This document shows positions 2,627 through 30,282 of a DNA stretch of 32,000 nucleotides, piece after piece. Below the pieces are notes generated by a model. That model was not told the DNA's origin, made no database searches, and saw only the letters and a program-made list of their open reading frames with translations. Made by a program: the position numbers and the translations under genes. Source of the DNA: Candidatus Cloacimonadota bacterium (lineage in GTDB: Bacteria; Cloacimonadota; Cloacimonadia; G963667145); the NCBI GenBank assembly GCA_963676515.1, contig OY781061.1, positions 505,520 through 537,519 on the forward strand, read 5' to 3'. Positions within the stretch are counted from its first letter, which is position 1. Every line of letters begins with the position of its first letter.

Positions 2627-2641
2627 TTTATCTCCTATTCT

Positions 2642-3796
2642 TTAAAAAGAGTATTCCGCTTTACACCACGCCATGGAGTTATCGGAAAATTTACCAAAAT
2701 TGCCTTGCTGGTCGCCGTCGTAATAGTCGTAACCTAGCAAAATGTGCAGCCCTTGACTGCAATCGTAGTCGCCACTAAATTTACAAAAAATATCTTGCCG
2801 AGCAAGGCTATTCACCGCTTGAGCAGTAAATTCTAACTGCTGACGAAAAACTTTCTTCTTGAGCGTGAGGGTCAGCAAGCTCTCCGACTCATCCCTTTGC
2901 ACATCGACAGAGTAGTCGCAAACCAAATCGGCTGTTAGCTGAGCTGTAATAGTCCAGTCGTTCCCCGGATAGCAGTCTATCCCCAGCAATCCATCCAGCC
3001 ACGGCTTCTCTACCGTTCCTCCAGCAAAAAACTTCCGCTGGTAATAAGCAGACTCCAGACGATACACAAAAGAGCCTTGTGCTGCGGAAGCTTCCACGCC
3101 TACATAGCCAGTTCGCTTGTAGTCTATCACCAAGTCACCTGCCGAGAAACTTTGCACAGGCAACCAGAAATAGTAGCCACTCACTGCAAAATCAACCGCT
3201 CCCAAGTTTTTACCCAACCTGCCTGCTATTTGGGCAGATTCTAGCGTCTTCTCGGGCAAATCGTGCTCCACACCCTTATAACCAATAACATTCCACAAAG
3301 AGTCCGCCAATGGGTACTCTGCTCTGGTCATGTACGGCAGATAGATGATGTCGAGGTCAAAATAATCGGGAGAGTAGCTGAACTTGCATGCATCCACCGC
3401 TAGGCGACTGTCTTGCAAATCTTGGCTGAGTCCCAGCGAAAAGTCTTGCGAGCAGATAATGTCCGTGATACGCAGTCCGTCGGCTTTCCCCCAAGCGATG
3501 ATCTGGCGACCAATCCTCACATCCCAAGAGTCGGCAAAGTAATCGAAATAAGCTTCCTTGAGTTCAAAACTGCTCTGGTCTGTATTATTATCACGCATCG
3601 CCTTCAAGCTAGAAAAGAAGTAGGTGCTTTGCTTGTCTTGGCTCAGTTCCAGCAAAAGCCAGTTCTTATCCAGCAAACTTTGCTGCTCGCCTTGACTCTG
3701 CCAGCCGTGATGCGAAGCAACTTTACCTGCCACATCTAGGGCAAAAATTTGCCAGCAAAAAAAAGTGAGCATTAATAGAAAAAGTTTTTTCATCAA
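2642..3796 (-). CDS. Outer-membrane beta-barrel protein (DUF1302/porin-like) with signal peptide
   Basis: Signal peptide MKKLFLLMLTFFCWQIFA; alternating aromatic/polar strands; SWDVRIGRQIIAWGKADGLRITDI motif; C-terminal ...YSF. Start overlaps the stop of the upstream gene (3793-3796). Confidence 0.65.
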   Translation of the reverse strand: MMKKLFLLMLTFFCWQIFALDVAGKVASHHGWQSQGEQQSLLDKNWLLLELSQDKQSTYFFSSLKAMRDNNTDQSSFELKEAYFDYFADSWDVRIGRQIIAWGKADGLRITDIICSQDFSLGLSQDLQDSRLAVDACKFSYSPDYFDLDIIYLPYMTRAEYPLADSLWNVIGYKGVEHDLPEKTLESAQIAGRLGKNLGAVDFAVSGYYFWLPVQSFSAGDLVIDYKRTGYVGVEASAAQGSFVYRLESAYYQRKFFAGGTVEKPWLDGLLGIDCYPGNDWTITAQLTADLVCDYSVDVQRDESESLLTLTLKKKVFRQQLEFTAQAVNSLARQDIFCKFSGDYDCSQGLHILLGYDYYDGDQQGNFGKFSDNSMAWCKAEYSF

Positions 3797-4557
3797 AACT
3801 TACCTCTTTTAAGATTTGCAACTTTGAAAATTCTATCAGACACCTCTTGGTTATATTTCACCGATTGTATTTCCAGCAATGTCGTGTGTTTCTCCTGCTC
3901 ATTGTCCATAAAGCGAGAAAACGCTGTCCAGATACCGTCGATTTTTTGGAAATTACTGGCTGTCATCCTCTTCAAAAATCTACCTCTTTTATCGTAAAAC
4001 TCACCTTTTACCACCAGCAAATAATCTTTACTCACCCACTTCACCACTTTGGAGTACTGGTACCCTTCCTCTTTGGGAGTAGACTCCACCACCCAGCAAT
4101 CCGTGTCAGCAAACTTCTCCTCTTGCAGAAGTTTATGCGTATCTTCCTCTGGCTCTCTTTGTCCCATATCGTCATAGGTAAAATCTGTCCCCATAAAGTA
4201 GTCGCTCGTGCTAGAAGAAGCTATCCGCCTTACTTTCCGCAATGCTGGCATATATAGCCATTTGTCGTCATCTTTCGTAGCGTCATCGTACGACCAGTTC
4301 AAAAAAGCTGTCCCCGCAACATCGGCAGGTTGCAAAAACACAAACAGCGATTTCTCATCTTGCCCAAAATCTTTACGAATCATCTTCGTCTGCCTCTCCC
4401 TTGTTCTGCCTTGTCTATTGGTCAGCACCATCTTACTTTCGGAAACCATCGTCTTCCCATCGTCTCTTGCGTCCACTTGCTCCATTATCTCCAATCCCGT
4501 GATCGAAAACAGGCTACTCCCAACCGCTAAAACTATAAATACAAATAAACTTCTCAT
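3793..4557 (-). CDS. Outer membrane lipoprotein-sorting protein (LolA-like family)
   Basis: Signal peptide, then FVFLQPADVAGTAFLNWSYDDATKDDDKWLYMPALRKVRRI...FMGTDFTYDDM, characteristic of LolA-like sorting proteins found next to MMPL exporters. Confidence 0.8.
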   Translation of the reverse strand: MRSLFVFIVLAVGSSLFSITGLEIMEQVDARDDGKTMVSESKMVLTNRQGRTRERQTKMIRKDFGQDEKSLFVFLQPADVAGTAFLNWSYDDATKDDDKWLYMPALRKVRRIASSSTSDYFMGTDFTYDDMGQREPEEDTHKLLQEEKFADTDCWVVESTPKEEGYQYSKVVKWVSKDYLLVVKGEFYDKRGRFLKRMTASNFQKIDGIWTAFSRFMDNEQEKHTTLLEIQSVKYNQEVSDRIFKVANLKRGKF

Positions 4558-4581
4558 TTTAAAACCGCCTTTAAATATTTT

Positions 4582-4608
4582 TGAACACTGTTTACTGAAC
4601 AGCGTTCA
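4582..4608. promoter_or_regulatory. Inverted-repeat operator candidate (TetR-like) upstream of the LolA-like/porin/MMPL operon
   Basis: TGAACACTGTT-TACTG-AACAGCGTTCA: 11-bp arms with one mismatch. Can also be read as two 13-mers, TGAACACTGTTTA and TGAACAGCGTTCA, 14 nt apart. It ends about 25 nt upstream of the start codon at 4557. Confidence 0.5.
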
Positions 4609-4734
4609 TTGTCAAGGAGCAAAATGTTTTTTTGCTCCTTTCGCTTGCAACGACCAGACTGTCGCCCTTGGCTAGACGGTTTCGTCTTCTGTCAGATGAC
4701 TGGTTTACTAAATTTTCTCTCCTGACGGATGGTC

Positions 4735-4770
4735 TTACTTTTCCCTTTGGCTGACCAAAGCGAAAAGTAA
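4735..4770. repeat. Strong hairpin in intergenic repeat mosaic
   Basis: TTACTTTTC-c-CTTTGG-CTGA-CCAAAG-c-GAAAAGTAA; 15 paired bases with a single C/C mismatch. Confidence 0.75.
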
Positions 4771-4964
4771 CAAAAGGTAAAATCAAAATACCAAATCAGT
4801 AAGCTAAATTCTAAACCTTCTTTACACGCTGAAAGGCTTGTGCTAGAAATCACAACTGTTTAATAGAGGTGATATAGCACATCGCTCTTCAGCGTAAACT
4901 CAGGGCGGCTAACGAATTTAACGCTTCCTGCTTTATGTATTTATTAGCCCAACCCTTCCTTGGG

Positions 4965-4982
4965 TTCCCGCTTCCGCGGGAA
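4965..4982. repeat. Short palindromic element (dRS3-like TTCCCGC-TTCC-GCGGGAA), copy 1
   Basis: Perfect 7-bp inverted repeat with TTCC loop; the flanks are shared with copy 2 (aaccc-tccttgg-ttcccgc...). Confidence 0.75.
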
Positions 4983-5253
4983 TCCATTCTCTCACACTAT
5001 GCTAAAAACTACCACCAGACACTGTTTCCACTCAGCACGAGCTTTTTGTAGCCACCACCTGCCACAAGAAACCACCCAATAAAAACTTTAAGCAACTAGC
5101 ATACAATTACTTACGCCTTGCGGAGCTACGCTGGCGGCGACGAGCTATATCACCAAAAAGTGACAGATGTGATTCATAGCTCAAGACTGACAGCGTGCGA
5201 GGCGAGGCTTAGTAATTTTGCTAGGAGCTTAGGTTTTTTGACTTTTTCTTTCC

Positions 5254-5289
5254 TTCTACTTCTTTTTGGTCTGTCAAAAAGAAATAGAA
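5254..5289. repeat. Hairpin in intergenic repeat mosaic, second occurrence
   Basis: TTCTACTTCTTTTTG / CAAAAAGAAATAGAA, 15-bp stem with one mismatch. Confidence 0.65.
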
Positions 5290-5423
5290 AACCCTGCGTT
5301 AGCAGAGCCAACTAAATAAATAACCGACAGTGTCCGAAATAAAGTATGGCAGTCAATTAATTAACACATATACACTCCCAAGCTGGAGCTTGGGAGCGAG
5401 AAAAAACGCCAACCCATCCTTGG

Positions 5424-5443
5424 ATTCCCGCTTCCGCGGGAAT
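5424..5443. repeat. Short palindromic element ATTCCCGC-TTCC-GCGGGAAT, copy 2
   Basis: Perfect 8-bp inverted repeat; flanks match copy 1. Confidence 0.75.
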
Positions 5444-5796
5444 GAGGCGGATAAGGTGACTAAAGGGTTGGGTGATAACTCAAAGCCTGTGGTAAGCAGA
5501 GTCAGTGCTGGTGGATACTCAAAACTGGCAGTGGACGAAAGCAAACGCTTGTGAAGACACATAATTGTCTGTGGCACACGCCCGAGAGCTTCGCTGGCGT
5601 CGAGAGAGAATGCTGAGTAAGTCATTCAAGCCGAGGTTCGTAAACTTGTTTAAACGAATGAGCTAGTGGCTGTGCGACTTGGCTTAGGTCTCTTCTTTAG
5701 GCTGGCTTTAAAAGACTTTAAGCCTGAGTTACAGCCACCGTGAAGGTAGTTTTGCAAGTTAGAATCGAGGTTTATGACTTTGATTTTTTTTTGGCA

Positions 5797-5833
5797 TTAC
5801 CTTTCTTTTTTATCACTAAAAGAAGAAAGGTAA
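5797..5833. repeat. Hairpin in intergenic repeat mosaic, third occurrence
   Basis: TTACCTTTCTT...AAGAAAGGTAA inverted repeat. Confidence 0.6.
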
Positions 5834-5884
5834 CATCCTGTGATAGCAAAAGTTAACGCCTTTCCAGCATCGTGTCAATGAATG

Positions 5885-5904
5885 GATTCCCGCTTCCGCT
5901 CAGG
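5885..5904. repeat. Degenerate palindromic element (ATTCCCGCTTCCGCT...), copy 3
   Basis: Left arm matches copies 1 and 2 exactly; the right arm is degenerate. Confidence 0.5.
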
Positions 5905-6085
5905 ATGAGGATGGTGGTAACTCAAGACTGGTGGTAAATAGAAGCAAGGGCTAGTGGACAGTTTTCACCACAAGTGGCAAAGCCTAATTGAAAAGATAAA
6001 ATTATTGTCACACATAGTAAAAATGAATAAAAAAAGCCGCCCTTTGTTTAAAAAAGGACGGCTCAATTACAAATCTAAATAAGTA

Positions 6086-7372
6086 TTACATGAAGAACTT
6101 GCCGATGAAAATCAAGGCAACGATGTAAGTAACAACACTAACTTCTTTAGCTCTACCTGAGCAAAGTTTCAATGCTGTGTAAGAGATGATACCAAAAGCA
6201 ATACCCTCAGAGATAGAGTAAGTAAGTGGCATGATAATCATAGCCAAGAAAGCTGGAAGACCTTCGGTAAAATCTGCGAAATCCACTTTCAAAATCGGAG
6301 TAAGCATAAAAAGACCCACAACGATAAGAACAGGAGCTGTAGCAGCACCAGGCACCATTGTAATCAGTGGAGAGATGAAAAGAGAAAGCAAGAACAGACC
6401 AGAGATAACCAAAGCGGTAAGACCAGTACGACCACCCTCTTCTACACCAGCGGCTGACTCTACATAAGTAGTAACAGTACAAGTTCCAAGTAGTGCACCA
6501 ACTGTAGTACCTACAGCATCAGCAAAGAGAGCTTTCTTCACGCCTGGCAATTTGCCATCAGAATCAAGCATATTAGCTTTAGAAGCCACACCAACCAAAG
6601 TACCCACTGTATCAAACATATCTACGAACAAGAATGTGAACAACACGGTAGCCATATCAAGACTAAAAACATTGCTAAAATCAAGTTTGAAAAAGATAGG
6701 AGCAAGGCTAGCAGGAGCAGAGAAAATGCCATTAAATTTGGCAGCACCCAAAATAAGAGCCAAAACAGTAGAAGAAAGAATCCCTATCATCAAAGCACCT
6801 TTGACTTTTTTGTGATGCAATACGCCAATCACCAAAACACCAAACACGCAGATCAAAGGGTTGACTGAAAGCATATCTCCCAGTCCCAGCAATACAGCAG
6901 GATTGTCAACGACAATAGAAGCTCCTTGCAAACCGATGAAAGCGATGAAAAGCCCGATACCAGCAGAGATAGCGTATTTCAAGTTAATCGGAATACTATT
7001 GACAATCGCCTCACGCACATTGAGGAAAGTCAAGATCAAGAAGATCACACCTTCCAAAAAAACTGCTGTAAGAGCAAACTCCCAAGAGTAACCCATACCC
7101 AAAACCACTGTAAAAGCAAAAAAGGCGTTCAGCCCCATACCTGGTGCAAGACCAAAAGGCATGTTTGCATACAAAGCCATCACCAAAGTAGCTATAGCCG
7201 AAGACAAAGCTGTCGCAGTGATAAGCGCCCCAAAAGGCATACCTGTTTTTGACAAGATAATGGGATTCACAATAAGGATGTAACCCATAGTCAAAAAAGT
7301 GGTGATACCAGCAAGGATTTCTGTTTTTACAGTCGTTCCATGCTCACTAAGTTTAAAGAATTTTTCGAACAT
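6086..7372 (-). CDS. NCS2-family guanine/hypoxanthine permease (AzgA/PbuG-like)
   Basis: MFEKFFKLSEHGTTVKTEILAGITTFLTMGYILIVNPIILSKTGMP...GLAPGMGLNAFFAFTVVLGMG. Start chosen at 7372 because AGGAGGAAG lies directly upstream; the supplied ORF extends to 7408. Confidence 0.93.
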   Translation of the reverse strand: MFEKFFKLSEHGTTVKTEILAGITTFLTMGYILIVNPIILSKTGMPFGALITATALSSAIATLVMALYANMPFGLAPGMGLNAFFAFTVVLGMGYSWEFALTAVFLEGVIFLILTFLNVREAIVNSIPINLKYAISAGIGLFIAFIGLQGASIVVDNPAVLLGLGDMLSVNPLICVFGVLVIGVLHHKKVKGALMIGILSSTVLALILGAAKFNGIFSAPASLAPIFFKLDFSNVFSLDMATVLFTFLFVDMFDTVGTLVGVASKANMLDSDGKLPGVKKALFADAVGTTVGALLGTCTVTTYVESAAGVEEGGRTGLTALVISGLFLLSLFISPLITMVPGAATAPVLIVVGLFMLTPILKVDFADFTEGLPAFLAMIIMPLTYSISEGIAFGIISYTALKLCSGRAKEVSVVTYIVALIFIGKFFM

Positions 7373-7509
7373 TCTTCCTCCTAAATATATAAAGTTTCCC
7401 CAAAACAAAAAGGAGCAAGTTTCAAGTCAAGATTTTTCTTTATTTTCTTGACTCATTACAAGCACTAAACGAATTAAGTAACAATAAAATTTAACTCAAG
7501 GAGAAAATT

Positions 7510-8424
7510 ATGAAAATACTTGTAGCAACACAAAAACCTTTCGCAGCAGCGGCTGTGAACAAACTCAAAGAAGCAGTTGCCAAATCAGAGCACGAGCTTG
7601 TCCTTTTCGAGAGCTATGCCGAGCAAGCAGATTTGGTAGGAGCGGTCAGCGACTGTGATGCACTGATCATCAGAAGCGACAAAGTGACCAAAGAAGTCAT
7701 AGACGCTGCAAAAAACCTGAAAATCGTCGTCCGCGGTGGAGCTGGATACGACAATGTAGATTGCGCTGCCGCCAGTGCAAAAGGCATCGTGGTAATGAAC
7801 ACTCCGGGGCAAAATTCCAATGCAGTAGCTGAGCTGGCTCTGGGAATGATGATAATGGCTGCTCGCGGATGCTACAACGGCAAGTCTGGTAGCGAACTCA
7901 AAGGAAAGACTTTGGGTATTCACGCTTACGGTAATATCGGTTGCATCGTAGCACGCCTAGCCAAAGGTTTTGGGATGAATGTTATCGCTCACGATCCTTT
8001 CGTAGACCAATGCAAAATCACAGACGGTTGTGGAGCTTGTGCCGAATCGGTAGAAGAGCTTTACTCCAAGGCGGATTATCTATCTTTGCACATCCCTGCC
8101 AATGACAAAACCAAAGGCTCTATCAACTACGAACTTTTGGCAAAAATGCCCAAGGGAGCATGCCTGGTGAACACAGCACGCAAAGAGGTAATAGACGAAG
8201 ACGGACTTTTGCAAAAAATGAGCGAAGATAAAGGGTTCAAATATATGACCGACATCGCTCCTGCTAATTTGGACAAATTCCAAGCTTTCACCGATCGCTT
8301 CTTCGCTTCTCCCAAAAAAATGGGTGCACAAACTGCCGAAGCTAATATCAACGCTGCTGTAGCGGCTGCCGAACAAATTATCGCTTTTCTCAAAGACGGC
8401 ACTAACACTTTCCAAGTAAACTAA
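7510..8424 (+). CDS. serA: D-3-phosphoglycerate dehydrogenase-like 2-hydroxyacid dehydrogenase
   Basis: IIRSDKVTKEVIDAAKNLKIVVRGGAGYDNVD...NTPGQNSNAVAELALGMM and a Rossmann region KTLGIHAYGNIG; ...VNTARKEVIDE; RBS aaggag upstream. Confidence 0.88.
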   Translation: MKILVATQKPFAAAAVNKLKEAVAKSEHELVLFESYAEQADLVGAVSDCDALIIRSDKVTKEVIDAAKNLKIVVRGGAGYDNVDCAAASAKGIVVMNTPGQNSNAVAELALGMMIMAARGCYNGKSGSELKGKTLGIHAYGNIGCIVARLAKGFGMNVIAHDPFVDQCKITDGCGACAESVEELYSKADYLSLHIPANDKTKGSINYELLAKMPKGACLVNTARKEVIDEDGLLQKMSEDKGFKYMTDIAPANLDKFQAFTDRFFASPKKMGAQTAEANINAAVAAAEQIIAFLKDGTNTFQVN

Positions 8425-8544
8425 AATTACAAATAGCGAATTCAAAAGAAGGCAGGAAATATATCTCTTGTTTAGAGCATGTTCCCCTGCCTTCATTTTT
8501 TCTTTAATCCTTATCACTTTCGCTCAATATTTGATGTCTTCAAG

Positions 8545-9954
8545 ATGAATTATTCCACACTCGCACAATGGTGCAACGAGCCTCTACCTCAGTTCCTGAA
8601 ATTCAAGTCGATGGAAAGAGCCGCAGACCAATACCGCATCTCGTTCACCAAGAGTTATCTTTTCTTGCAAATAAACCTCTCGGGAAAAGACAACTTCTGC
8701 TTTTTTACCCAAGACGATACGCTGGACTTCACGCCTGCTTTTTCGGGGGTTATGAGCCTTTTCCAGAACGCTGTCCTCTCGGAAATAAGCCCACTTGGCA
8801 ACGACAGAATTTTAAGCTTCTTATTCCACAAAAGGTCTATTTACGGCGAAAATCTCCTGCTAAAAATTGTAGTGGAACTTATCCCGGGCAAACTGAATAT
8901 TATCTTCTTGGAAGAGAACAAGATTTTGCAAGCCAAAAAGATTTACTCTTTTGCCGACAATCCAGAGCGGCAAATACTCTCTGGGCAAAAATACCTCTTG
9001 CCTGTAAACAAAAACAAGCAAGAAATTTGCTACCGCCCTTTGCCGTGGCACGATCAAGACTACAGCTTCGAATCTGTAAACGACTATCTGGAGCATTTTT
9101 TTTACAACCACATCCACCTGCAAAGATTAGCTATTATCAAAAATAGAGAAGAGAATCAGCGTAAGAAAAAAATAGAGAAAGCTGAAACAAAACTCGCTCA
9201 TCTCAGGGCGACTTGGCAAGATTACAGCAAGACAGAATATTGGAAGATGGCTGGCGAACTGCTAAAATCGGCTTATCACACGATCACGCCAGGATTACAA
9301 GAGATCTCAATAGTAAACTACTGCGACCCTAAGATGCCCAAAATTATTATAAAACTAAAAAAAGAGCTCTCTCCAAGGCAAAATGTCGATCTCTACTTCA
9401 AAAAATATAAGAAAGGGATCAACGGGAAAAAAATCATCGAAAGTCGCATCAAAATGACAGAAGCCGAAATACAGAATCTGAAAAATCAGCCAGACTACAG
9501 TCAAGAAAAAGCAGAATACACGCCCAAAGCAAAACCTAATGAAAAAAAATCTCTGAAGCAGATCAAGATAAACGAAATTTTAAAAATCGTAATCGGCAGA
9601 AACGACGCCGAGAACAACACCATTACCTGCAAACTAGCAGGAAAAACAGATTTATGGTTTCACACCAGAGCTATCAGAGGCTCTCATATCGTGATATTTA
9701 ACCCTTACAAAAAAGATGTTCCCCAAAAAATAATCGAAATTGCAGCGGGTCTGGCTGCCTACTATTCCAAAGCCAAACATTCGGGGAAAGTAGCCGTAGA
9801 CTACACTCACATCCGTTATGTGTGGAAGATAAGAAAGGGTCGTTTAGGACAAGTAAACTACAAAAATCAAAAAACTGTGTTTACCAAACCAAGATCGATG
9901 CGGGAAGTAAAAAAAGAGTTAAACGAATTTATAAAAGATACTAGCAAAGGCTAG
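8545..9954 (+). CDS. NFACT family protein (RqcH/Rqc2-like RNA-binding)
   Basis: C-terminal NFACT-R signature KTDLWFHTRAIRGSHIVIFNPYKK...AAGLAAYYSKAKHSGKVAVDYTHIRYVWKIRKGRLGQVNYKNQKTVFTKP, preceded by a coiled coil. Likely start MNYSTLAQW at 8545; the ORF as given begins at 8479. Confidence 0.85.
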   Translation: MNYSTLAQWCNEPLPQFLKFKSMERAADQYRISFTKSYLFLQINLSGKDNFCFFTQDDTLDFTPAFSGVMSLFQNAVLSEISPLGNDRILSFLFHKRSIYGENLLLKIVVELIPGKLNIIFLEENKILQAKKIYSFADNPERQILSGQKYLLPVNKNKQEICYRPLPWHDQDYSFESVNDYLEHFFYNHIHLQRLAIIKNREENQRKKKIEKAETKLAHLRATWQDYSKTEYWKMAGELLKSAYHTITPGLQEISIVNYCDPKMPKIIIKLKKELSPRQNVDLYFKKYKKGINGKKIIESRIKMTEAEIQNLKNQPDYSQEKAEYTPKAKPNEKKSLKQIKINEILKIVIGRNDAENNTITCKLAGKTDLWFHTRAIRGSHIVIFNPYKKDVPQKIIEIAAGLAAYYSKAKHSGKVAVDYTHIRYVWKIRKGRLGQVNYKNQKTVFTKPRSMREVKKELNEFIKDTSKG

Positions 9955-10604
9955 TGAATCTCGATAACTATCCGCCTATTAAGGTCACGATTGGACTGAA
10001 TAGGTCTGCCGCTAGAGTCTTTATTGGGAGCTAAAGGCTTAATATAAGCGTACCCAGAAGCTTTCATCTTATCCGGCGATATTCCCTCGATGATAAAGTA
10101 ACGGACAATATTTGAGGCTCTACCCACAGACAACTCCCAGTTAGAAGGAAAGCGTCTCGTGTTTATCGGCACATCGTCTGTATGCCCCTCGATATCTATA
10201 TTAGGGTCGTAGTAATTAATTGCCTGAATGGAATTAGCTATCTTTTCTAAAATCCCAATATTCTTTTTGATAATAGTGGCTTCTCCCGAACGATAAAGAG
10301 CGTCTGACAAGATGTTTATCGCAATAGATGAACGATTAAGTCGTACAGAAACTATTCCCGCCATCCTTTCCTCTAGAAGCATAGAATCCAAATCTGTTTT
10401 CATCCGCGATAAAGGTGTAGAAAAATCATCTTCGTTAGCTTCTATCTCAGCACGATAACCTTCTTTGAACTCCTGCCACATACCAGAGTTCGTAGTAGAC
10501 ATAGAAACCAACAAAACAAAAAAACAAAGAAGAAGAGTAACCAAATCAGAGTAAGTAGTCAGCCAAGACTCATCAATAAGAGTCTTTTTTCTTTCGAACT
10601 TCAT
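9951..10604 (-). CDS. MotB-like stator protein with C-terminal OmpA/peptidoglycan-binding domain
   Basis: WLTTYSDLVTLLLCFFVLLVSMS (TM with conserved D), then NIDIEGHTDDVPINTRRFPSNWELSVGRASNIVRYFIIEGISPDKMKASGYAYIKP...NRDLNRRIVIEI. Confidence 0.93.
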   Translation of the reverse strand: MKFERKKTLIDESWLTTYSDLVTLLLCFFVLLVSMSTTNSGMWQEFKEGYRAEIEANEDDFSTPLSRMKTDLDSMLLEERMAGIVSVRLNRSSIAINILSDALYRSGEATIIKKNIGILEKIANSIQAINYYDPNIDIEGHTDDVPINTRRFPSNWELSVGRASNIVRYFIIEGISPDKMKASGYAYIKPLAPNKDSSGRPIQSNRDLNRRIVIEIH

Positions 10605-10632
10605 TTAATAACTCTCTTGCCACACTTGACAA

Positions 10633-11433
10633 TCAAAAATCGTCACCAACATTCATAGCATTTTCTCCATTATCCTCTTTGTCCACTAGCGAACGCAAAA
10701 AATCTTCCACATAAAAAGAAGATTTTTCTTGTATAATAAGGATAACACCTTCCAAAATAAGGTTTTTACGAAACATAACAGACATAGCTATATCTACAGA
10801 TTTATTCGCTCCTGGAATAAAAAAAACTCTAGCTAAAATAAGTCCATAAAAAGTGGTAATCAGAGCCACCGCCATCGCAGGACCAATCTTGGATGGATCG
10901 TCTAATTGACTAAGCAAGATAACCAAACCTATCAAAGTACCCAACATACCAAAAGCTGGCGAAGAACCACCTAAACTTTTCAAAATCTCAGAAGTTTCTT
11001 CTGCGTTTTGATTCTCTCTGGATATTTCGTTCTGGATAAACTCTTTGGACTCTTCCAGAGAGTATCCTGTGGACAAAATAGAAAAAACATATTTATCAAA
11101 AGGGTCGGTAACTTCGGAATATATCTCATCATAAGCTTTCTTGCCACCACTTTGCACTCTTTCTGCCCAATCTTTGATACGACTAATTTCCTGAGTATAA
11201 CTTTTACTATCCATAGGGTACTTAAACATTACCCTGAAAGCAGCGAGAATTGCTTTGCTTGTCCTTACTACTCCACGACCTACAAATTCACTAATGAGCG
11301 TACCACCTACCACGATCAAAATACTGGGGTAGTTGATAAACACTTGCCAATTTGAGGTAGCACTCAATATAGATATTGCAATTACAACCCAAACGAGAAT
11401 AAAAGAGATAAAAGAACTTACAGAACCTATCAT
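10633..11433 (-). CDS. MotA-like stator protein (MotA/TolQ/ExbB family)
   Basis: WQVFINYPSILIVVGGTL near the N-terminus; GGSSPAFGMLGTLIGLVILLSQLDDPSKIGPAMAVALITTFYGLILARVFFIP is diagnostic of MotA. Confidence 0.93.
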   Translation of the reverse strand: MIGSVSSFISFILVWVVIAISILSATSNWQVFINYPSILIVVGGTLISEFVGRGVVRTSKAILAAFRVMFKYPMDSKSYTQEISRIKDWAERVQSGGKKAYDEIYSEVTDPFDKYVFSILSTGYSLEESKEFIQNEISRENQNAEETSEILKSLGGSSPAFGMLGTLIGLVILLSQLDDPSKIGPAMAVALITTFYGLILARVFFIPGANKSVDIAMSVMFRKNLILEGVILIIQEKSSFYVEDFLRSLVDKEDNGENAMNVGDDF

Positions 11434-11436
11434 AAA

Positions 11437-12093
11437 TTAGTACCCTATTTTATTTAACATTTGCCTCACACCTTGGATACTATTATTTAAACGCAAAGAG
11501 TTTGTCCAATTTTTACGAGCCAATGATAAATTACCCAACATATAATAAACACTTCCTTTCAAAGCATAAGCTCTTGCGGTAGGTTTTTGATTTATAGAAC
11601 TGTTAACTTGCTGCAAAGCTTTTTCATAACTACCTGCATAAAAGCTATTTTGAGCTTGTACCAAAAAATCACTTTCTGAAGGACTTGAGCTTGCATTTTC
11701 ATCTTGAGAAGAAGGCGTTTCAACGCTAGCATAATCGTCTAGAGATTCACCTGTAGATCCAGATTTTGAAACATCTATCTGAACATTGTTATCTCTAGGG
11801 TCAAGGCTCAAAATCACTTCTGAAGATTTGTTTCGATACTTGATCAGAATCTCATTTTTTTGAGGACGAAGAGTGTTCTGTTGGATAATCGTAGTGCTTT
11901 GCTCTGTATCCTGATCCACTACTCCTACTCCCCTATCTATACTTTTACCTGCTACTGTTCCAGAAGAGCTAACCATAGCCTCTCTTTCCGAAACTGTACT
12001 TTCCTCTACTCCCCTTTTAAGAACATACTTATTCCAAAGGGAACATCCAGAAAACAAGAAAAGACTAGAAATTATAACTAAAATTAATCTCAT
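11437..12093 (-). CDS. TPR-containing lipoprotein
   Basis: Lipobox MRLILVIISSLFLFSGC; TPR-like region YAGSYEKALQQVNSSINQKPTARAYALKGSVYYMLGNLSLARKNWTNSLRLN. Overlaps the upstream gene by 29 nt. Confidence 0.75.
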   Translation of the reverse strand: MRLILVIISSLFLFSGCSLWNKYVLKRGVEESTVSEREAMVSSSGTVAGKSIDRGVGVVDQDTEQSTTIIQQNTLRPQKNEILIKYRNKSSEVILSLDPRDNNVQIDVSKSGSTGESLDDYASVETPSSQDENASSSPSESDFLVQAQNSFYAGSYEKALQQVNSSINQKPTARAYALKGSVYYMLGNLSLARKNWTNSLRLNNSIQGVRQMLNKIGY

Positions 12094-13216
12094 ACTTCAG
12101 CGCCCCAAACTCAATATAACTACTTTCATTTTGTTTCAATGTCCTACCAAACGGTATAACTCCCAGACCAAGACCTACTTCTATATCTTCGGTAAGATCG
12201 GATGTAGCACCAATCATGGTGGTCAAGAAGCTCCCAGAATAATTAATAGGAACAAAAAACTCACCTTTCATATATGGCTTAAGCCAATAATTGTCTTTTA
12301 AAGATTTAAGCTGACTTTCTTTTTTATAATATTTCGTCATCACTCCACCACCTGCGTAACCCAAGAAGGCTGTCGGTAAAGTGGAAAAACCCTCAATATT
12401 GTTTTCCAATGTCAGCTGGCAATTCACGATAGACAAGCCTGCCGAGAGAGTCATCATAACCTCTGCAAAAGAGAAGTTAGATTTTTGCTTACGCACAGCT
12501 CCTAGACGATAATCGATCATCCTTGCAGAGTTGCTACTACTTCCCCCATAATTACTGTCAAAGATAGACACTCCGTCTCTTTTGTAGTCGTTGACTGTAA
12601 AGAAGCCAACATTAAAATCAAGAGCGTACTGCTTTGGAATATCTATATCACGGTCGTTGTTAGGTCCTTCGATATAAGCTTTCGACCAAATAATCTCTCC
12701 TGTTTTGTTGCTTACCATCTTTAAGGAGAGCAAAACATCTCCGTAGGCACTACGAGTGCAATTCCCCTCGATGAAAGCGTCTATGTTGTACTTCTCTCCC
12801 ATATGTCGGAGCTCATCAAAAGATCTGGCAGAATTAACATAACTAAAAGAGGTATCGGTAATTTTTACTCTGGCGAGATTGAACTCTGGCACTACCACCA
12901 AATCTATCGCCTCGTTGTTTAAAAGGACTTGCTCTAGTTTCGACTTCACAAAACGCACCATCCCGATAGAAATAGCGTCCCGATCAGCTTTGACACGATA
13001 GACTGCAACCCTCTTGACCCCTAAAGGGAAATTGAGGACAGACTCCTGCACTCTGAGCATAATGCGAGAGATATTGCGAACTTCCGATCTGTCACTACGA
13101 GGATAAGAGCCCACAGCACTCATGTTCGAAAATTGATTATACTCAAACTGAGCAAAAAGAGAAGAAAAACAAACAGTTAAAACAAAAACAAATAAAACTT
13201 TCTTAATACTCTTCAT
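12065..13216 (-). CDS. Exported protein: CsgG/FlgT-like N-terminal domain plus probable C-terminal outer-membrane beta-barrel
   Basis: Signal peptide MKSIKKVLFVFVLTVCFSSLFAQ; KRVAVYRVKADRDAISIGMVRFVKSKLEQVLLNNEAIDLVVV...YNIDAFIEGNCTRSAYGDVLLSLKMVSNKTGEIIWSKAY; C-terminal strands ending ...YEINFSYNF. Start at 13216 is preferred over 13249. Confidence 0.6.
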   Translation of the reverse strand: MKSIKKVLFVFVLTVCFSSLFAQFEYNQFSNMSAVGSYPRSDRSEVRNISRIMLRVQESVLNFPLGVKRVAVYRVKADRDAISIGMVRFVKSKLEQVLLNNEAIDLVVVPEFNLARVKITDTSFSYVNSARSFDELRHMGEKYNIDAFIEGNCTRSAYGDVLLSLKMVSNKTGEIIWSKAYIEGPNNDRDIDIPKQYALDFNVGFFTVNDYKRDGVSIFDSNYGGSSSNSARMIDYRLGAVRKQKSNFSFAEVMMTLSAGLSIVNCQLTLENNIEGFSTLPTAFLGYAGGGVMTKYYKKESQLKSLKDNYWLKPYMKGEFFVPINYSGSFLTTMIGATSDLTEDIEVGLGLGVIPFGRTLKQNESSYIEFGALKYEINFSYNF

Positions 13217-15182
13217 TTGCTGCTCTACCTTCACTTTGGTTTCCACCAATATTACGCCCGCCAGCTTCTCTAATCTCTTTTCTGATTACGGACATCATTT
13301 TTCTTCTGGATCTCTCTATATCATCTGCTTTTAATTTGTTTTCATTTATTCTCAGTTCTGACCTAATAATCTCTCTCATCCGCTCGGGAACATTAGACAA
13401 AATAGAGTTAATCCTCACCTCGTCTACTCCAACCAACGCTGCAGACAATAATTCTCTGTCCATTTTTTGGATAGCTCTGACCATAATATCTTCTTCCAAG
13501 TTGCCTAGGTCATCAAAAGCTATAAAGTATTTCAAGACTTTCTCTGCTGTCTCCACATCCGCTTTCGTGATGTCGTCGATAAACTCTTTTTGCTGAGATG
13601 TAGTGAGAGTATCCAATATCTCCAGCATCTTGCCAGCACCATCGGAAGAAACATACTCCATTCCTCGCATCTTGAGTGCCTCTTTTGCCAAACGACTAGA
13701 GACCTCTTTATACACAGAAGTCGGGATTTTGCCCAGTTTGCCCATATTTCCCATCACCGCAGACCGCTGCTCCAATGGATAAGACGCCAGTAGTTCCGAA
13801 GCTTTCTCTGCAGACACTTGAGTAATGACCAGTGCTTGCACGCCCTCAGGTTCGCCTTTGAGAGCTTGTCTTATCTGTTCTACGGACATTGCGTTCAAGA
13901 AACCAAACATCCCTGTGTCGTCCTTGCCATCGTCAGTGACGGTCAAAGAACTCCAAGCATTTTTAAAATTTTGCAACGCTTCCAACTTAGTTTTCGTGTC
14001 CAAATCTTCCATATTGCGAATATTCCAAGAAAGCAACTTGAAATCGTCGTGCGAAACTTTACCTTCCAAAAGGTCAAGCAAATTTTCATCTATAGCTTTG
14101 ATTAGCTTGGTAGCTTTATCTATACCTTCGTCTCCACCACTATCTACCCAACCTTGCAAGACAATGCCCACATTTTTCGCTTCTGCCAAAAATTTATTAA
14201 TCGCAAAAGAACGAAGTTTTTTGTATTCTGCAATCTCCATTTTTTCGGGCTCAGAAGTTCGATTGACTTTCCGAAGCTCCCGCATCTCTTGCATCAAACT
14301 ATCAAACTGCTCATCATATCGAGGGAAGTTTACTTTCGGTTGTACCATATTGGAGTCTTGCACTCCAGAGTTCTTTTTGGATATGAAGAAAAAAGCTACC
14401 AAAAATCCAATTAGCAACAACAAGCCTATCAATCCTGCGATTAAATAAGTTAAGAAGTCTGAGTTATCTTCGTCTGGAAGAGGCTCGTCTTGGACTTGCT
14501 CATCCTCCATCTCTTTTCTTCTTTTTTCTTCTTCTGCTAACCTAGCAGCCTCTTCTTCGGCTTTTTTAGCCTCTTCTATCATTTTTTGCTTTTGATTAGT
14601 AAACTTCACCAAAGTCACATTGACAATGTCGCCTCGGTAAATATCTATCCCAGCCTTCATCTTTACCAGTTCATCTATAAAAGAGACATCTTCTGGCGTA
14701 TAAGCAGATGCGTCCAACATTACATTTACAACTAGGTTGTCTATCTCATAGTCCGATGCTCCGCCCATGCCTGTAGGCACCCGACTCTCTGTAATGCTAG
14801 TCTGACTAGGCATCGAGATATCTCCTAGTCCTTCTAGATCGTCCACAAACTCGTTGACGAATCTTCCCTCGGTACCAGGCATTACCAAATTCCCAAGACC
14901 GATACCAGAACTTACAGCTTGTGATGTTTGCAACATCCCCATACCCAAACCCATACCTTGCCTAGCTTTCAGGTTGACAGCAATATCAACCTCGTAAGTC
15001 TCTTTTTCGCAATAAGATGCCAAAGTGGATGAAAGTCTTATTTCATAAGCTCTAGATATCTTGTCCGCGTACATTATGACGCTGAGAGGCTCACTACTCC
15101 CCTGCTCAAAAGAGTACTGAGCTTGTAATAGACTAAAAGCCCAAAAAACAAGTAAAAATAATCTAAATTTTCTTGTTTGCAT
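13203..15182 (-). CDS. FliF(C-terminal)-FliG-like fusion protein (659 aa): signal peptide, FliF RBM3/beta-collar-like periplasmic part, TM, coiled coil, FliG-like cytoplasmic domains
   Basis: IDNLVVNVMLDASAYTPEDVSFIDELVKMKAGIDIYRGDIVNVTLVKF resembles the FliF segment before TM2; TM LTYLIAGLIGLLLLIGFLVAFFF. Then FliG-like ASELLASYPLEQRSAVMGNMGKLGKIPTSVYKEVSSRLAKEAL...GAGKMLEILDTLTTSQQKEFIDDITKADVETAEKVLKYFIAFDDLGNLEEDIMVRAIQKMDRELLSAALVGVDEVRINSILSNVPERMREIIRSEL. Confidence 0.8.
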   Translation of the reverse strand: MQTRKFRLFLLVFWAFSLLQAQYSFEQGSSEPLSVIMYADKISRAYEIRLSSTLASYCEKETYEVDIAVNLKARQGMGLGMGMLQTSQAVSSGIGLGNLVMPGTEGRFVNEFVDDLEGLGDISMPSQTSITESRVPTGMGGASDYEIDNLVVNVMLDASAYTPEDVSFIDELVKMKAGIDIYRGDIVNVTLVKFTNQKQKMIEEAKKAEEEAARLAEEEKRRKEMEDEQVQDEPLPDEDNSDFLTYLIAGLIGLLLLIGFLVAFFFISKKNSGVQDSNMVQPKVNFPRYDEQFDSLMQEMRELRKVNRTSEPEKMEIAEYKKLRSFAINKFLAEAKNVGIVLQGWVDSGGDEGIDKATKLIKAIDENLLDLLEGKVSHDDFKLLSWNIRNMEDLDTKTKLEALQNFKNAWSSLTVTDDGKDDTGMFGFLNAMSVEQIRQALKGEPEGVQALVITQVSAEKASELLASYPLEQRSAVMGNMGKLGKIPTSVYKEVSSRLAKEALKMRGMEYVSSDGAGKMLEILDTLTTSQQKEFIDDITKADVETAEKVLKYFIAFDDLGNLEEDIMVRAIQKMDRELLSAALVGVDEVRINSILSNVPERMREIIRSELRINENKLKADDIERSRRKMMSVIRKEIREAGGRNIGGNQSEGRAANEEY

Positions 15183-15457
15183 TTTTATTCCCGATATTAA
15201 ACAATGTGATACCTTTTTTTACTTCTTATCATCAAACGGAATTATAAATAGTATATGTGTCAAACCTTTTTTTCCTTTTTAAGATTTTCTTGCCCCTCTT
15301 TGTGTACTTAAATTCATACAAGCCTGTGTCTTAATTTCATTTTTTATTTTTTTTAAAATTTTATAAATTTTTATACTTTATTGCATAATTACAAGTTAAG
15401 TGCTTTTGCCTTTGGTTTAATTCTTGACTTATATCTGTTCTTTTTTAGAAACGGACT

Positions 15458-16447
15458 ATGAAAAAAAAATTACTTTTTTTACTCTTTTTTTGTTCTCTTT
15501 TTTTGATTTTTGTTTATAAACAACATTTGTCTTCAAAAAAAATCAGCAAAACAAGAATTGCTTTAGGAACTTTTATCGAGATCAGTCTGGAAGGAAATCC
15601 AAAGAGGATAGATAAATACATCGACACTTGCTTTGAGATTATCGAAGATTTACAACACAAACTGGGCTACCAAAATCCCAAAAGCGATCTAAGCTTTATA
15701 AATGGTTGCCAAAAAGCTCCTATCACTCCAGAGATTTTTTCTCTTTTAGATTTTTGCCAAGAGTTTTATCTTCTTTCAGAAAAAAGATTTGACCCAACCG
15801 TCGGAGCACTAATAGATCTTTGGGATTTTACTAAAAAAAGAGTGCCTACTCCTGCTAAGATAAAGCAAGCACAAAAAATTTGCGGGTTAGAAAAAGTCAA
15901 ATACGACACCCTTATGCTCATTAAACCTAAAAACCTGAAAATTCACCTGGGAGGAGTCGCCAAAGGGTTTATAATGCAAAAAGTTTGCGACTATCTACAA
16001 GAAAAGAAAATCAAAAGTGGATACATAAATGCTGGAGGAGATATTTCTATTTTTGGGAACGAATACAAGCAAATAGGAATTGCTCATCCTAGGCAAAAAG
16101 AAAAACTTATCGATACTATCCAAATAAAGACAGGTGCGGTAGTAACCTCGGGAGATTACGAGAGGTTTTTTGTAAAAAACGGTAAAAGGTATCATCACAT
16201 CATCGATCCTATCAGCGGATACCCCAGCGAAAACTGCGTCAGCGTTACGGTGGTGGATTCTAGCATCCTCAGAGCCGATGCCCTGGCTACCGCCTATTTC
16301 TTGATGCCCGTGGAAGAAGCTATCCTTATGGCTAATCGACGCAATCGACGCAAGAGTGCCGTTTTGATCTACTACCTAGACCACGAAGGAGCGTTGCAAA
16401 GCAGAGAGTCTTGCGAATTTGCTCAGTACAGGATGAAAAAAAGATGA
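15458..16447 (+). CDS. apbE: FAD:protein FMN transferase (ApbE family)
   Basis: LGTFIEISLEG; DPTVGALIDLWDF; VHLGGVAKGF-type motif (IHLGGVAKGFIMQKV); GYINAGGDISIFG; AVVTSGDYERFF...YHHIIDPISGYPSENCVSVTVVDSSILRADALATAYF. Confidence 0.95.
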   Translation: MKKKLLFLLFFCSLFLIFVYKQHLSSKKISKTRIALGTFIEISLEGNPKRIDKYIDTCFEIIEDLQHKLGYQNPKSDLSFINGCQKAPITPEIFSLLDFCQEFYLLSEKRFDPTVGALIDLWDFTKKRVPTPAKIKQAQKICGLEKVKYDTLMLIKPKNLKIHLGGVAKGFIMQKVCDYLQEKKIKSGYINAGGDISIFGNEYKQIGIAHPRQKEKLIDTIQIKTGAVVTSGDYERFFVKNGKRYHHIIDPISGYPSENCVSVTVVDSSILRADALATAYFLMPVEEAILMANRRNRRKSAVLIYYLDHEGALQSRESCEFAQYRMKKR

Positions 16448-17445
16448 TAGATTTTAGCATCATCGTGCCTACCTACAATAGGTTAGAAGAGATAAAAGAG
16501 TTTTTGGATTTTGCAGACAAACTACATTACGAAAAAAAGAACTTTGAACTAATCATAGTCGATGACGGCTCACAAGACAACACGGTCGAATTTTTGCAAG
16601 AAGCAATAAATAAATTCCCCCGATTGAACATGCAATATTACAAACAAAAAAACCAAGGACCTGCTAAAGCCAGAAACAAGGGAGCTTCTCTTGCCAAAGG
16701 TAAATATCTTTTATTTGTAGATTCCGATTGCCTTTTGCCTGCAGAGTGGCTAAACGAAATTAAAAAAAAGTTAGACAAGCAAGAAGTACTATTTTTTGGT
16801 GGTCCAGATAGGGAACATATAAAATTCAGCAATATGCAAAAAGCGATTAGCTACGCAATGACGGGATTTTGGACGACTGGTGGCATTAGAGGCAAGAGGA
16901 AAAAGAACTTTCAACCACGAAGTTTTAATATGGGAATAGAGAATAAAGCTTTCCAAAATGTGACTGGATTTAATGATTTACGATTTGGAGAAGATATAGA
17001 CATTGGCATTAGGTTGAATGAAAAAGGCTACCAAAGTCACCTTTTCCCCGAGGCTTGGGTTTATCACAAGAGACGCTCAAATCTTAGACAATTTTTCAGA
17101 CAAGTGCTTAACTCTGGATCAGCTAGGGTAAACTTGGGAACTTTGCACTCAGGAAGTACGAAAGTTATCCACCTTTTGCCAGCTATTTTCACCTTAGGAT
17201 TTTTCGGTTTATTGGTTAGCAGTATTTTTTATCCCTACTTTTTGCTTCCACTTTTGGGATATACTTTGCTTCTTTATTTTGGAGCGATGTTTAAATACAA
17301 GAAGTTTTTTTTGCCTTTCCTGTGTGTAGTAGCTGGCTATACCCAACTGCTGGGTTATGGTTGCGGATATTTACTCGGTAGCATCAGAAAGGCTTTTACG
17401 GGCAAGAGTCGATACGATATTAAAGTGGAGAAATTTTATGATTGA
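16444..17445 (+). CDS. Glycosyltransferase family 2 with C-terminal TM region
   Basis: MIDFSIIVPTYNRLEEIKEFL...LIIVDDGSQDNTVEFL...GPAKARNKGASLAKGKYLLFVDSD; ATGA overlap with the apbE stop. Confidence 0.92.
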   Translation: MIDFSIIVPTYNRLEEIKEFLDFADKLHYEKKNFELIIVDDGSQDNTVEFLQEAINKFPRLNMQYYKQKNQGPAKARNKGASLAKGKYLLFVDSDCLLPAEWLNEIKKKLDKQEVLFFGGPDREHIKFSNMQKAISYAMTGFWTTGGIRGKRKKNFQPRSFNMGIENKAFQNVTGFNDLRFGEDIDIGIRLNEKGYQSHLFPEAWVYHKRRSNLRQFFRQVLNSGSARVNLGTLHSGSTKVIHLLPAIFTLGFFGLLVSSIFYPYFLLPLLGYTLLLYFGAMFKYKKFFLPFLCVVAGYTQLLGYGCGYLLGSIRKAFTGKSRYDIKVEKFYD

Positions 17446-23533: not shown

Positions 23534-23621
23534 TGGTACCAGAGACCGGACTTGAACCGGTACAGGCTAAAAGCCCGAGGGATTTTAAGTCCCTTGTGTC
23601 TACCAATTCCACCACTCCGGC
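23534..23621 (-). tRNA. tRNA-Leu(TAA)
   Basis: Reverse strand GCCGGAGTGGTGGAATTGGTAGACACAAGGGACTTAAAATCCCTCGGGC...GTACCGGTTCAAGTCCGGTCTCTGGTACCA; acceptor pairs with CTCTGGT; encoded CCA; long variable arm. Confidence 0.95.
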
Positions 23622-23635
23622 AATCTTTTGGAAAT

Positions 23636-23709: not shown

Positions 23710-23719
23710 GCAAAAAAAA

Positions 23720-28106: not shown

Positions 28107-28107
28107 T

Positions 28108-30280: not shown

Positions 30281-30282
30281 TT

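Follow-up and report, generated by a model that had tools for sequence, protein, structure and literature searches.

Within a 32,000-nucleotide stretch of Candidatus Cloacimonadota DNA (hereafter the window; GenBank assembly GCA_963676515.1, contig OY781061.1, positions 505,520 to 537,519), our interest was an operon of five genes on the minus strand (9951-15182). The first gene encodes a single polypeptide in which the C-terminal half of FliF is joined to a complete FliG. The genes that follow encode a putative outer membrane (OM) protein, which we call X, a tetratricopeptide repeat (TPR) lipoprotein, and the stator subunits MotA and MotB. All five are tightly packed and partly overlap. On balance, we favour the view that their products form a self-contained, ion-driven rotor-stator machine, made from flagellar parts and working without a flagellum. 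This reading draws on computed domain homologies, conservation of the operon, purifying selection and the conservation of key residues.

The fusion gene is an open reading frame (ORF) at 13203..15182, on the minus strand, with an ATG start. It specifies 659 amino acids, among which all peptides quoted in the original prediction, made from the sequence alone, were found. The layout is a signal-peptide-like N-terminus, the third ring-building motif (RBM3) of FliF with an insertion, a charged helix, one transmembrane (TM) helix, the FliF tail, and the N, M and C domains of FliG. Note that Pfam models were scored against their gathering cut-offs and NCBIfam models against their equivalog cut-offs. 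Pfam detects FliG_C (residues 537-638; 48.1 bits, cut-off 23.3), FliG_M (residues 435-505; 38.8 bits, cut-off 25) and the C-terminal part of YscJ_FliF_C (residues 145-194; 24.8 bits, cut-off 23.8). The NCBIfam FliG equivalog, TIGR00207, aligns with residues 425-642 at 84.3 bits, well under its 226.7-bit cut-off. Identity to canonical FliG is about 20-25%, which lies under curated family cut-offs.

Profile searches against PDB point the same way. A profile of nine Cloacimonadota orthologues matched FliG structures (E = 6e-13 to 2e-9) and, weakly, at 'RGD..NV..VKF', the FliF part of an engineered Vibrio fusion (8z4d). A family profile, made from an alignment of 137 full-length fusion members, matched far more. 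The middle and C-terminal domains of FliG were recovered with E = 8.7e-49 (1lkv), full-length Aquifex FliG (3hjl, residues 11-327) aligned with profile positions 313-604, and FliG_N of 5tdy was matched with E = 3e-4 (5tdy_B residues 6-75). On the FliF side, residues 230-560 of the Salmonella protein (6scn) aligned with positions 37-311 (E = 4.8e-10) and residues 254-579 of the Vibrio protein (8z5s) were also matched (E = 1.6e-8). The engineered fusion 8z4d was found through its FliF and FliG parts alike. A match to SpoIIIAG was marginal (E = 0.043). The profile check against both sets of structures bears out the FliF and FliG assignments of the original prediction.

The predicted structure has the same organisation. 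We built an AlphaFold monomer model on the 137-member alignment, with a mean predicted local distance difference test (pLDDT) score of 80.8. In the N-terminal half, a helix (33-55) and strand (63-73) precede a low-confidence segment (79-140), which is followed by a strand (145-157), a helix (163-177) and a further strand (186-192). This is the topology of the RBM fold, with an insertion placed where FliF has its beta-collar. Next come a charged helix (197-226), a TM helix that is also evident in a hydropathy scan (243-270), and then very confident helices (pLDDT 95-98) corresponding to the FliF tail, FliG_N, FliG_M and FliG_C. Foldseek searches of PDB with the model returned full-length FliG from an electron cryo-microscopy structure of the C-ring (8umx_B, E = 1.4e-11, 327 columns). 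They also returned FliF RBM3/collar ring subunits (6scn_K, 7cg7 and 8z5v) with a probability of 1.00 and target-normalised template modelling scores of 0.5-0.56. An RBM3 split at the collar position, a charged helix with one TM segment behind it, and a FliG-like C-terminal part, all proposed in the original prediction, are recovered by sequence profiles, predicted structure and fold search.

Where the FliF part ends and the FliG part begins can be placed to the residue. The family consensus 'nPksvasVlksWieedqe' pairs with 'DPRVVALVIRQWMSNDHE', the final 18 residues of Salmonella FliF (543-560). The next consensus residues, 'eGvkeaaklikav...', pair with T. maritima FliG_N from residue 6 onwards. 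Since the FliF alignment runs to the last residue, and FliG_N starts right after, the protein is an end-to-end joining of the FliF C-terminal half and complete FliG. What had first been taken for a 'long linker' (approximately residues 285-420) is, by this residue-level alignment, the FliG-binding tail of FliF and then FliG_N. Within the tail, P335 and W345 are each kept in 98 of the 137 members, and pLDDT exceeds 95. Conversely, the N-terminal half of FliF is missing, as had been suspected for RBM1 and RBM2. No Pfam YscJ_FliF match was found in the fusion, the family profile aligns with FliF from residue 230 onwards, and the first RBM3 helix starts only about 10 residues after the signal-peptide-like segment. 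We conclude that the fusion is the C-terminal half of FliF joined to complete FliG, without FliF TM1, RBM1 or RBM2. Because the junction falls exactly at the FliF C-terminus and FliG N-terminus, the alignment suggests that the fusion arose by read-through of adjacent fliF and fliG genes, plus loss of TM1, RBM1 and RBM2.

The segments preceding the TM helix have features of their own. In the N-terminal segment, a basic n-region is followed by about 12 hydrophobic core residues and then 'LLQA|Q'. The segment looks more like a cleavable signal peptide, as originally proposed, than a TM anchor. Both secreted proteins of the operon have 'A|Q' at the predicted signal peptidase site ('LLQA|QY' in the fusion, 15117-15125; 'LFA|QF' in X, ~13145-13155). 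Glutamine at the +1 position fits the pattern described for substrates of signal peptidase I in the Bacteroidetes group. The same 'A|Q' was seen at the predicted signal peptide end in many fusion family members elsewhere. In the RBM3-like domain, the RGD motif (G184 and D185) is nearly invariant across the 137-member alignment. The insertion at the collar position varies between 23 and 124 residues (median 51) and contains the motif [L/M]-P-G-L, of which P102 is present in all 137 members and G103 in 133.

The architecture is shared by a large family. An exhaustive profile search, over representatives of 50%-identity clusters, gave 1973 matches with E < 1e-3, 299 with E < 1e-10 and 80 with E < 1e-30. 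Among the best 150 representatives, 136 have at least 540 residues (mostly ~560-730), align from query positions ~130-320 to ~640, and share the layout described above. Nearly all members have a hydrophobic, signal-peptide-like N-terminal segment. Typically, 'RGD' lies about 50 residues ahead of one strong TM segment, near residue 200-260, and some 350 cytoplasmic residues follow. The search hence places the fusion architecture in more than 100 divergent clusters. One member, P0110, matches YscJ_FliF_C over the full length of the model. The source label of another (locus L011) is Pseudomonadota, and the family spans multiple phyla. Note that word-indexed searches gave only eight close relatives or one FliG, probably because candidate selection was dominated by the E/K-rich, low-complexity helix. 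These eight are at least 70% identical and come from closed chromosomes of about 1.55 Mb, identified as metagenome-assembled genomes of Candidatus Cloacimonadota/Cloacimonadales. A scan of a genome collection, with Cloacimonadota-specific patterns, found five loci, and a protein search of a plasmid collection returned canonical FliG with no fusion. In databases, family members are named 'flagellar motor switch protein FliG', 'FliG C-terminal domain-containing protein' or 'hypothetical protein'. If the operon works as we propose below, the first of these labels is a systematic annotation error. We found no description of the family or operon in open-access papers and bioRxiv preprints; a prior description elsewhere is possible.

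We examined the 137 members for residues with known roles in FliG. The original prediction had drawn attention to charged residues of the torque helix, and these are kept in part. Neither a lack of FliG profile matches nor a loss of all these charges, either of which would have told against that prediction, was seen. The equivalent of E. coli R281, the most important of the charges, which contacts the stator, is R601, and is Arg or Lys in 133 members. At S608/E609, equivalent to E. coli D288/D289, at least one residue is acidic in 91 of the 137. The remaining charges did not hold up: K618 (the R297 equivalent) is not conserved and V584 (the K264 equivalent) is hydrophobic. The Asp-Gly hinge (G515) is conserved across the family. 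In FliG_M, the EHPQR motif binds FliM. Of this motif, Glu alone is kept (E444; 121 of 137); the H, P and Q positions are variable and the Arg position is not conserved. Judged by these alignment columns, the FliM-binding motif is lost in the fusion family.

The stator genes complete the picture. In NCBIfam comparisons, MotA scores 137 bits against PomA, compared to 27.8 bits for TolQ and 14 bits for ExbB. Residues 9-253 align with positions 7-245 of 254 in the PomA model, though the score is under the 341-bit equivalog cut-off. PDB matches for MotA were to flagellar stators only (PomA, 3e-28). PomA E96 (E98 in E. coli MotA) is the partner of the FliG Arg in torque transmission. Across 11 stators associated with the family, the equivalent position is acidic in nine, and two channel prolines are invariant. 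MotB contains both MotB_plug (54.3 bits) and OmpA (53.4 bits) Pfam domains, and matches the NCBIfam MotD model at 154 bits, under the 283-bit equivalog cut-off. In PDB, it matches B. subtilis MotB (6ysl, 1.6e-24), and the channel Asp segment 'YSDLVTLLL' pairs with 'YADILTLLL' of B. subtilis. A plug, a channel Asp and an enlarged torque interface on the A subunit separate flagellar (FIT) from generic ion-driven motors (PMC12505986). With its plug, channel Asp and PomA-like MotA, the operon stator is, by sequence, of the flagellar type.

Zorya anti-phage defence systems also use MotAB homologues, and MotB does match ZorB models weakly (53 bits). That the operon is a Zorya-like defence system is, however, extremely improbable. 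In PADLOC, MotA does not match ZorA, none of the operon proteins matches ZorC, ZorD or a further defence model, and MotB scores far higher against flagellar MotD/MotS/MotB. Furthermore, the locus sits among housekeeping genes with conserved synteny, unlike a defence island. We rejected this reading, the PADLOC match being limited to the generic MotB fold.

We compared 17 loci, comprising six from Cloacimonadota and 11 distant loci, with flanks of 8-10 kb. The order fusion, X, TPR, MotA, MotB is found in all six Cloacimonadota loci and in six of the 11 distant ones (L009, L012, L014, L015, L017 and L018), whose family members are 20-30% identical. Elsewhere, the module is rearranged (X, TPR, fusion, MotA, MotB in L007) or partial. 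In L013, the fusion, X and TPR genes are present and MotAB is not next to them; L011 combines TPR and fusion with two unknown genes; the P0034 contig has fusion, X and TPR, and then ends. In L016, an OprF-like protein, the fusion, MotA and MotB lie beside a 1798-residue, adhesin-like protein. Overall, at the distant loci, MotAB is adjacent in eight of 11, X is beside the fusion in nine, and the module includes a TPR protein in 10.

Protein X has a signal peptide ('LFA|Q') and a conserved N-terminal domain, with motifs RVAVY..D, DAFIEG and tGeiiWs. The C-terminal half shows period-2 hydrophobic alternation at about three times the chance rate. The protein ends '...YEINFSYNF', an alternating aromatic pattern, and the terminal Phe is present in 11 of 13 orthologues. 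OM beta-barrels usually carry a pattern of this kind, ending in Phe, as their assembly signal. X is probably an OM barrel with a periplasmic domain. Profile searches with X gave no significant Pfam, NCBIfam or PDB match. Weak hints came from three members, to FlgO (two members, best E = 0.069) and FlgT_M (one match, E = 0.054). On a second contig (L010), with an identical fusion (P0010), X is split into ORFs of 143, 53, 131 and 71 residues (11882-13403); it is intact on L009 (372 residues). The split could stem from an error in assembly or a spurious frameshift, or X could be decaying in one population.

Might the fusion simply stand in for FliF and FliG of a real basal body, with the other flagellar genes elsewhere on the chromosome? 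Every domain is a flagellar homologue, the database labels refer to the flagellar motor switch, and a published survey found flagellar genes in 5 of 46 Cloacimonadota genomes (bioRxiv 10.1101/2021.10.08.463351). We nonetheless consider an ordinary flagellar component distinctly unlikely. In the same survey, flagella are the exception in this phylum, which favours a machine that works without one. No export gate, rod, hook, filament, fliM or fliN gene was found in the 32-kb window or in the 8-10 kb flanks of the 17 loci, one of which has type IX secretion substrates. In MS-ring structures, such as 6scn, the RBM1, RBM2 and TM1 segments of FliF surround the export gate, and these are the very parts that the fusion lacks. 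In addition, the FliM-binding EHPQR motif is lost, the FliG equivalog score is 84 bits against a cut-off of 226.7, and the operon is self-contained, with non-flagellar partners.

Nor does the operon resemble the decaying, functionless remains of a lost flagellum. Flagella are frequently lost, and 11% of non-motile species have rotor proteins but no filament (PMC12199754). Even so, the fusion gene has a ratio of nonsynonymous to synonymous substitution (dN/dS) of 0.03-0.08, where dS is unsaturated, indicating strong purifying selection. On this basis, we rejected the relic or pseudogene reading, which is highly improbable. ORFs are intact in all loci, gene overlaps suggest translational coupling, and the module is kept, with its dedicated non-flagellar partners, across very divergent lineages.

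If the operon does encode a rotor-stator machine, we can propose how it would work. From the evidence above, we infer ring assembly, rotation, independence from a flagellum, coupling to X and the TPR lipoprotein, and an output. The fusion would be exported N-terminus first, and its RBM3-like domains would build a periplasmic ring resembling the FliF S-ring. The insertion at the collar position, which contains the invariant LPGL motif, probably folds into a short beta-barrel collar. Each subunit would contribute one TM helix to anchor the ring in the inner membrane. In the cytoplasm, the FliF tail would pack into the covalently attached FliG_N, and FliG_M and FliG_C would form a second ring, in 1:1 ratio with the periplasmic one. 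Stators of the MotA5B2 type would be anchored to peptidoglycan through the OmpA domain of MotB, gated by the plug, and would pass H+ or Na+ via the conserved Asp. By pushing on the torque helix of FliG_C, through the conserved FliG Arg and the MotA acidic residue, they would turn the ring. Given that the FliM-binding motif is lost, and that fliM and fliN are absent from the regions searched, the motor would be unidirectional and outside chemotaxis control. X and the TPR lipoprotein may link the ring to the OM, or scaffold it there, replacing the rod and the P/L or H/T rings. Our guess at the output is movement or remodelling of a component of the cell surface or envelope. The original prediction had suggested that a covalent link between MS-ring and C-ring would make a minimal rotor, with no separate FliG. 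Architecture, operon and family data are consistent with such a rotor, which would have to form a ring and turn.

Several observations weigh against this model. On the torque helix, the R281 equivalent alone is strongly kept, with the K264 and R297 equivalents lost and acidic residues at the D288/D289 equivalents in 91 of the 137 members. In the MotA encoded by the window, the position of PomA R88 (R90 in E. coli MotA) is Gln, and it is basic in some family members only. MotAB is not adjacent to the fusion in L011 or L013. The collar insertion is of low confidence in the monomer model, and so a collar conformation is not confidently predicted. X has no recognisable family, and a single-sequence model has a pLDDT of 32.6; coupling to the OM is therefore conjecture. 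The search for flagellar genes covered the 32-kb window and flanks of 8-10 kb, leaving room for a flagellum encoded elsewhere. Finally, in a subclade of the family, a peptidoglycan-binding LysM domain lies N-terminal to the RBM3-like domain, on the periplasmic side, as seen in members P0091 (residues 52-94) and P0136 (residues 69-111). It is difficult to see how a ring protein bearing LysM could spin freely, and a static platform fits better.

These points lead to a different explanation, in which the FliF/FliG ring is a fixed docking platform in the inner membrane. Ion-driven force, or conformational work, from MotAB would then be passed to X and the TPR protein at the OM, much as Tol-Pal or TonB energises OM processes, or in the manner of SiiAB. 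SiiAB controls a giant adhesin, and the L016 module adjoins a giant adhesin-like protein. The conserved OM and lipoprotein partners would also suit such a transducer. We regard it as unlikely, and keep it as the main rival because ring assembly and rotation are inferred, the torque charges are incomplete, and LysM occurs in P0091 and P0136. Against a static platform, the stator has a plug and a PomA-like cytoplasmic domain, rather than being of the Tol/Exb type, and the torque-transmitting pair of FliG Arg and MotA acidic residue is conserved. Moreover, the module has no TolA- or TonB-like partner that spans the periplasm, and a complete FliG N-M-C architecture is under strong selection. A rotating machine is the reading that we prefer.

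The genes flanking some distant loci may hint at output or regulation, or their presence may be coincidence. Near the L016 module is the 1798-residue protein (1529-7968), which has Cadherin, Big_1 and Invasin_D3 domains, together with the OprF-like protein. L012 is flanked by two proteins of 1300-1500 residues (917-4840 and 12642-17153) with type IX secretion C-terminal domains, which place this locus in the Fibrobacteres-Chlorobi-Bacteroidetes (FCB) lineage. Upstream of the L014 module (5409-5813) is a small PilZ protein, of the family that binds cyclic di-GMP.

Among the known systems closest to the proposed machine is the flagellar motor core (Salmonella 6scn and 8umx; Vibrio 8bri). Both have RBM3 with an insertion at the collar position, TM2, the FliG-binding tail, FliG N-M-C and the R281-equivalent Arg. 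They also share a plug-bearing, peptidoglycan-anchored and Asp-dependent stator with a PomA-like A subunit. The FliF ring has about 33-34 subunits. In the flagellar motor, FliF and FliG are in 1:1 ratio, and in the window fusion this link is covalent. Unlike FliF and FliG of the flagellum, the fusion lacks TM1, RBM1, RBM2 and EHPQR, and has no FliM or FliN nearby. Near the fusion, genes for an export apparatus, rod, hook, filament and P/L rings are absent; X and the TPR lipoprotein are found instead.

Fusions of FliF and FliG have precedents. Engineered versions assemble rings and function within flagella (PMC6079021 and PMC11481574). Like the window protein, these Salmonella and Vibrio constructs (e.g. 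8z4d) join the FliF C-terminus to FliG in one polypeptide. However, they are laboratory products with full-length FliF (TM1 and RBM1-3), placed inside a complete flagellum. The window fusion is natural, N-terminally truncated, and in a non-flagellar context. The one natural fusion that we found described, in Chlamydiaceae, has ~330 residues, with TM1, RBM2, an RBM-like domain, TM2 and only a FliG_M-like region (Bergeron 2016, PMC4768692). It has no MotAB operon and a proposed interaction with the injectisome (PMC4768692). This too combines a shortened FliF with FliG-like sequence in organisms without flagella, but the 659-residue window protein differs in having RBM3, the FliF tail, complete FliG and its own stator.

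Other ion-driven machines of the MotAB family (ExbBD-TonB, TolQR-TolA, GldLM/PorLM of gliding and type IX secretion, and ZorAB) are likewise non-flagellar, work with partners in the envelope or OM, and have their output at or beyond the OM. None has a FliG/FliF ring, whereas the operon described here pairs a flagellar-type stator with a true FliG torque domain. In these other 5:2 motors, the cytoplasmic domain of the A subunit is condensed, and the B subunit is generally without a plug (PMC12505986). The SpoIIIAG sporulation ring (5wc3) resembles the fusion in that it has a ring-building motif of the RBM type, whose first two strands are separated by a beta-insertion. It has neither FliG nor stator, and the profile match to it was marginal, as noted above.

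The breadth of the family allows a wider, and more tentative, proposal. There is a substantial chance that these operons represent a widespread and uncharacterised class of non-flagellar rotary nanomachines, found in non-flagellated bacteria of the FCB group and in Proteobacteria. Each would have a covalent FliF(RBM3)-FliG ring, driven by MotAB, and coupled via an OM protein and a TPR lipoprotein to an output at the envelope or surface. If true, the flagellar torque core can exist and work without a type III export apparatus, rod or filament. The operon would be a natural, minimal flagellar motor, with one rotor polypeptide and two stator proteins, but no switch complex, export gate or axial structure. 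With FliF:FliG fixed at 1:1, it would provide a simpler system for structural studies of torque. It would also bear on whether the rotor-stator core functions alone, and make scenarios of stepwise assembly and exaptation testable. Surveys report rotor proteins and MotAB even where a genome is classed as non-motile (PMC12199754), and this would, in part, be accounted for. In abundant uncultured anaerobes (Cloacimonadota), and in other phyla, such machines would constitute an ion-powered envelope function.

Coordinates of the operon, and of segments within the fusion protein, are collected in Table 1.

Table 1. Features of the five-gene operon and of the FliF-FliG fusion, in window coordinates. 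Residue numbers refer to the fusion protein.
Feature	Coordinates	Strand	Basis
FliF(RBM3 to C-terminus)-FliG(N-M-C) fusion gene	13203..15182	-	ORF, Pfam, family profile against PDB, AlphaFold, fold search, dN/dS
Signal-peptide-like N-terminal segment, residues 1-22 ('...FSLLQA|Q'), replacing FliF TM1	15117..15182	-	Sequence reading; modelled helix 2-20
RBM3-like ring-building domain, residues 33-192, alpha-beta-[insertion]-beta-alpha-beta	14607..15086	-	AlphaFold, 6scn profile match, Foldseek
Insertion at beta-collar position, residues 74-144, Gly/Met-rich in the window protein	14751..14963	-	Low pLDDT and family motif
E/K-rich charged helix, from ring domain to membrane, residues 197-226	14505..14594	-	AlphaFold helix and sequence composition
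Single TM helix, residues 243-270, equivalent to FliF TM2	14373..14456	-	Hydropathy scan, AlphaFold helix, alignment to FliF TM2
FliF C-terminal FliG-binding tail, residues 312-349, 'AKNVGIVLQGWV' (cf. Salmonella 'DPRVVALVIRQW')	14136..14249	-	Alignment to residue 560 of Salmonella FliF
FliG N-terminal domain, residues 350-417, adjoining the end of the FliF tail	13932..14135	-	5tdy_B and 3hjl profile alignments
FliG middle domain, residues 425-506, EHPQR reduced to conserved Glu E444	13665..13910	-	Pfam FliG_M, column statistics
FliG C-terminal domain, residues 515-640	13263..13640	-	Pfam FliG_C, PDB alignments, conservation
Torque helix of FliG_C, residues 600-616, region including R601, S608/E609 and K618	13335-13385	-	PDB alignments, conservation
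Protein X, putative OM protein, 383 residues from ATG (394 from upstream TTG at 13249)	12065..13216	-	Overlaps fusion 3' end
TPR lipoprotein, 218 residues, lipobox 'LFSGC', C-terminal TPR repeats	11437..12093	-	Overlaps X by 29 nucleotides
MotA/PomA-like stator A subunit, 266 residues	10633..11433	-	Pfam MotA_ExbB, NCBIfam, PDB
MotB-like stator B subunit, 217 residues, plug, channel Asp ('YSDLVT') and OmpA peptidoglycan-binding domain	9951..10604	-	Pfam, NCBIfam, PDB
Terminator-like hairpin right after motB stop, probable operon end	9940..9955	-	Consensus scan only

The hairpin lies inside the end of a convergent gene on the plus strand (8479-9954). This encodes a 491-residue, NFACT-family (RqcH-like) protein and overlaps motB by four nucleotides. 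A scan for sigma-70 promoters gave 14 sites, compared with 13.5 expected, and was uninformative.

The original prediction left out the operon context (MotA and MotB, the putative OM protein and the TPR lipoprotein) and the large, multi-phylum family. Other parts of the window contain further features. A tandem duplication, with a period of ~1269 bp, occupies 29265-31866, and identity is 100% and 96% in two 300-nucleotide repeat blocks sampled from it. Both copies encode a 283-residue protein with a BRO-N domain (29429-30280 and 30698-31549), the two being 97% identical to each other. The duplication looks recent and may be part of a mobile or phage-derived element. A cluster at 278-4557, on the minus strand, encodes an MMPL/RND-type transporter (782 residues), a 384-residue protein that matches DUF1302 weakly, and a LolA-like/TP_0789-like protein (254 residues). 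It is syntenic in a related genome and is probably an export set for OM lipids or lipoproteins. Three tRNA genes, for Leu(TAA), Cys(GCA) and Gly(GCC), are located at 23534-23794 on the minus strand. On the same strand, the genes at 26109-29285 encode two CbiA/MinD-like P-loop proteins with 4Fe-4S ferredoxin inserts, a ParA ATPase of the Mrp/NUBPL type and a DUF134 protein. This run looks like an Fe-S-cluster-related operon typical of anaerobes.

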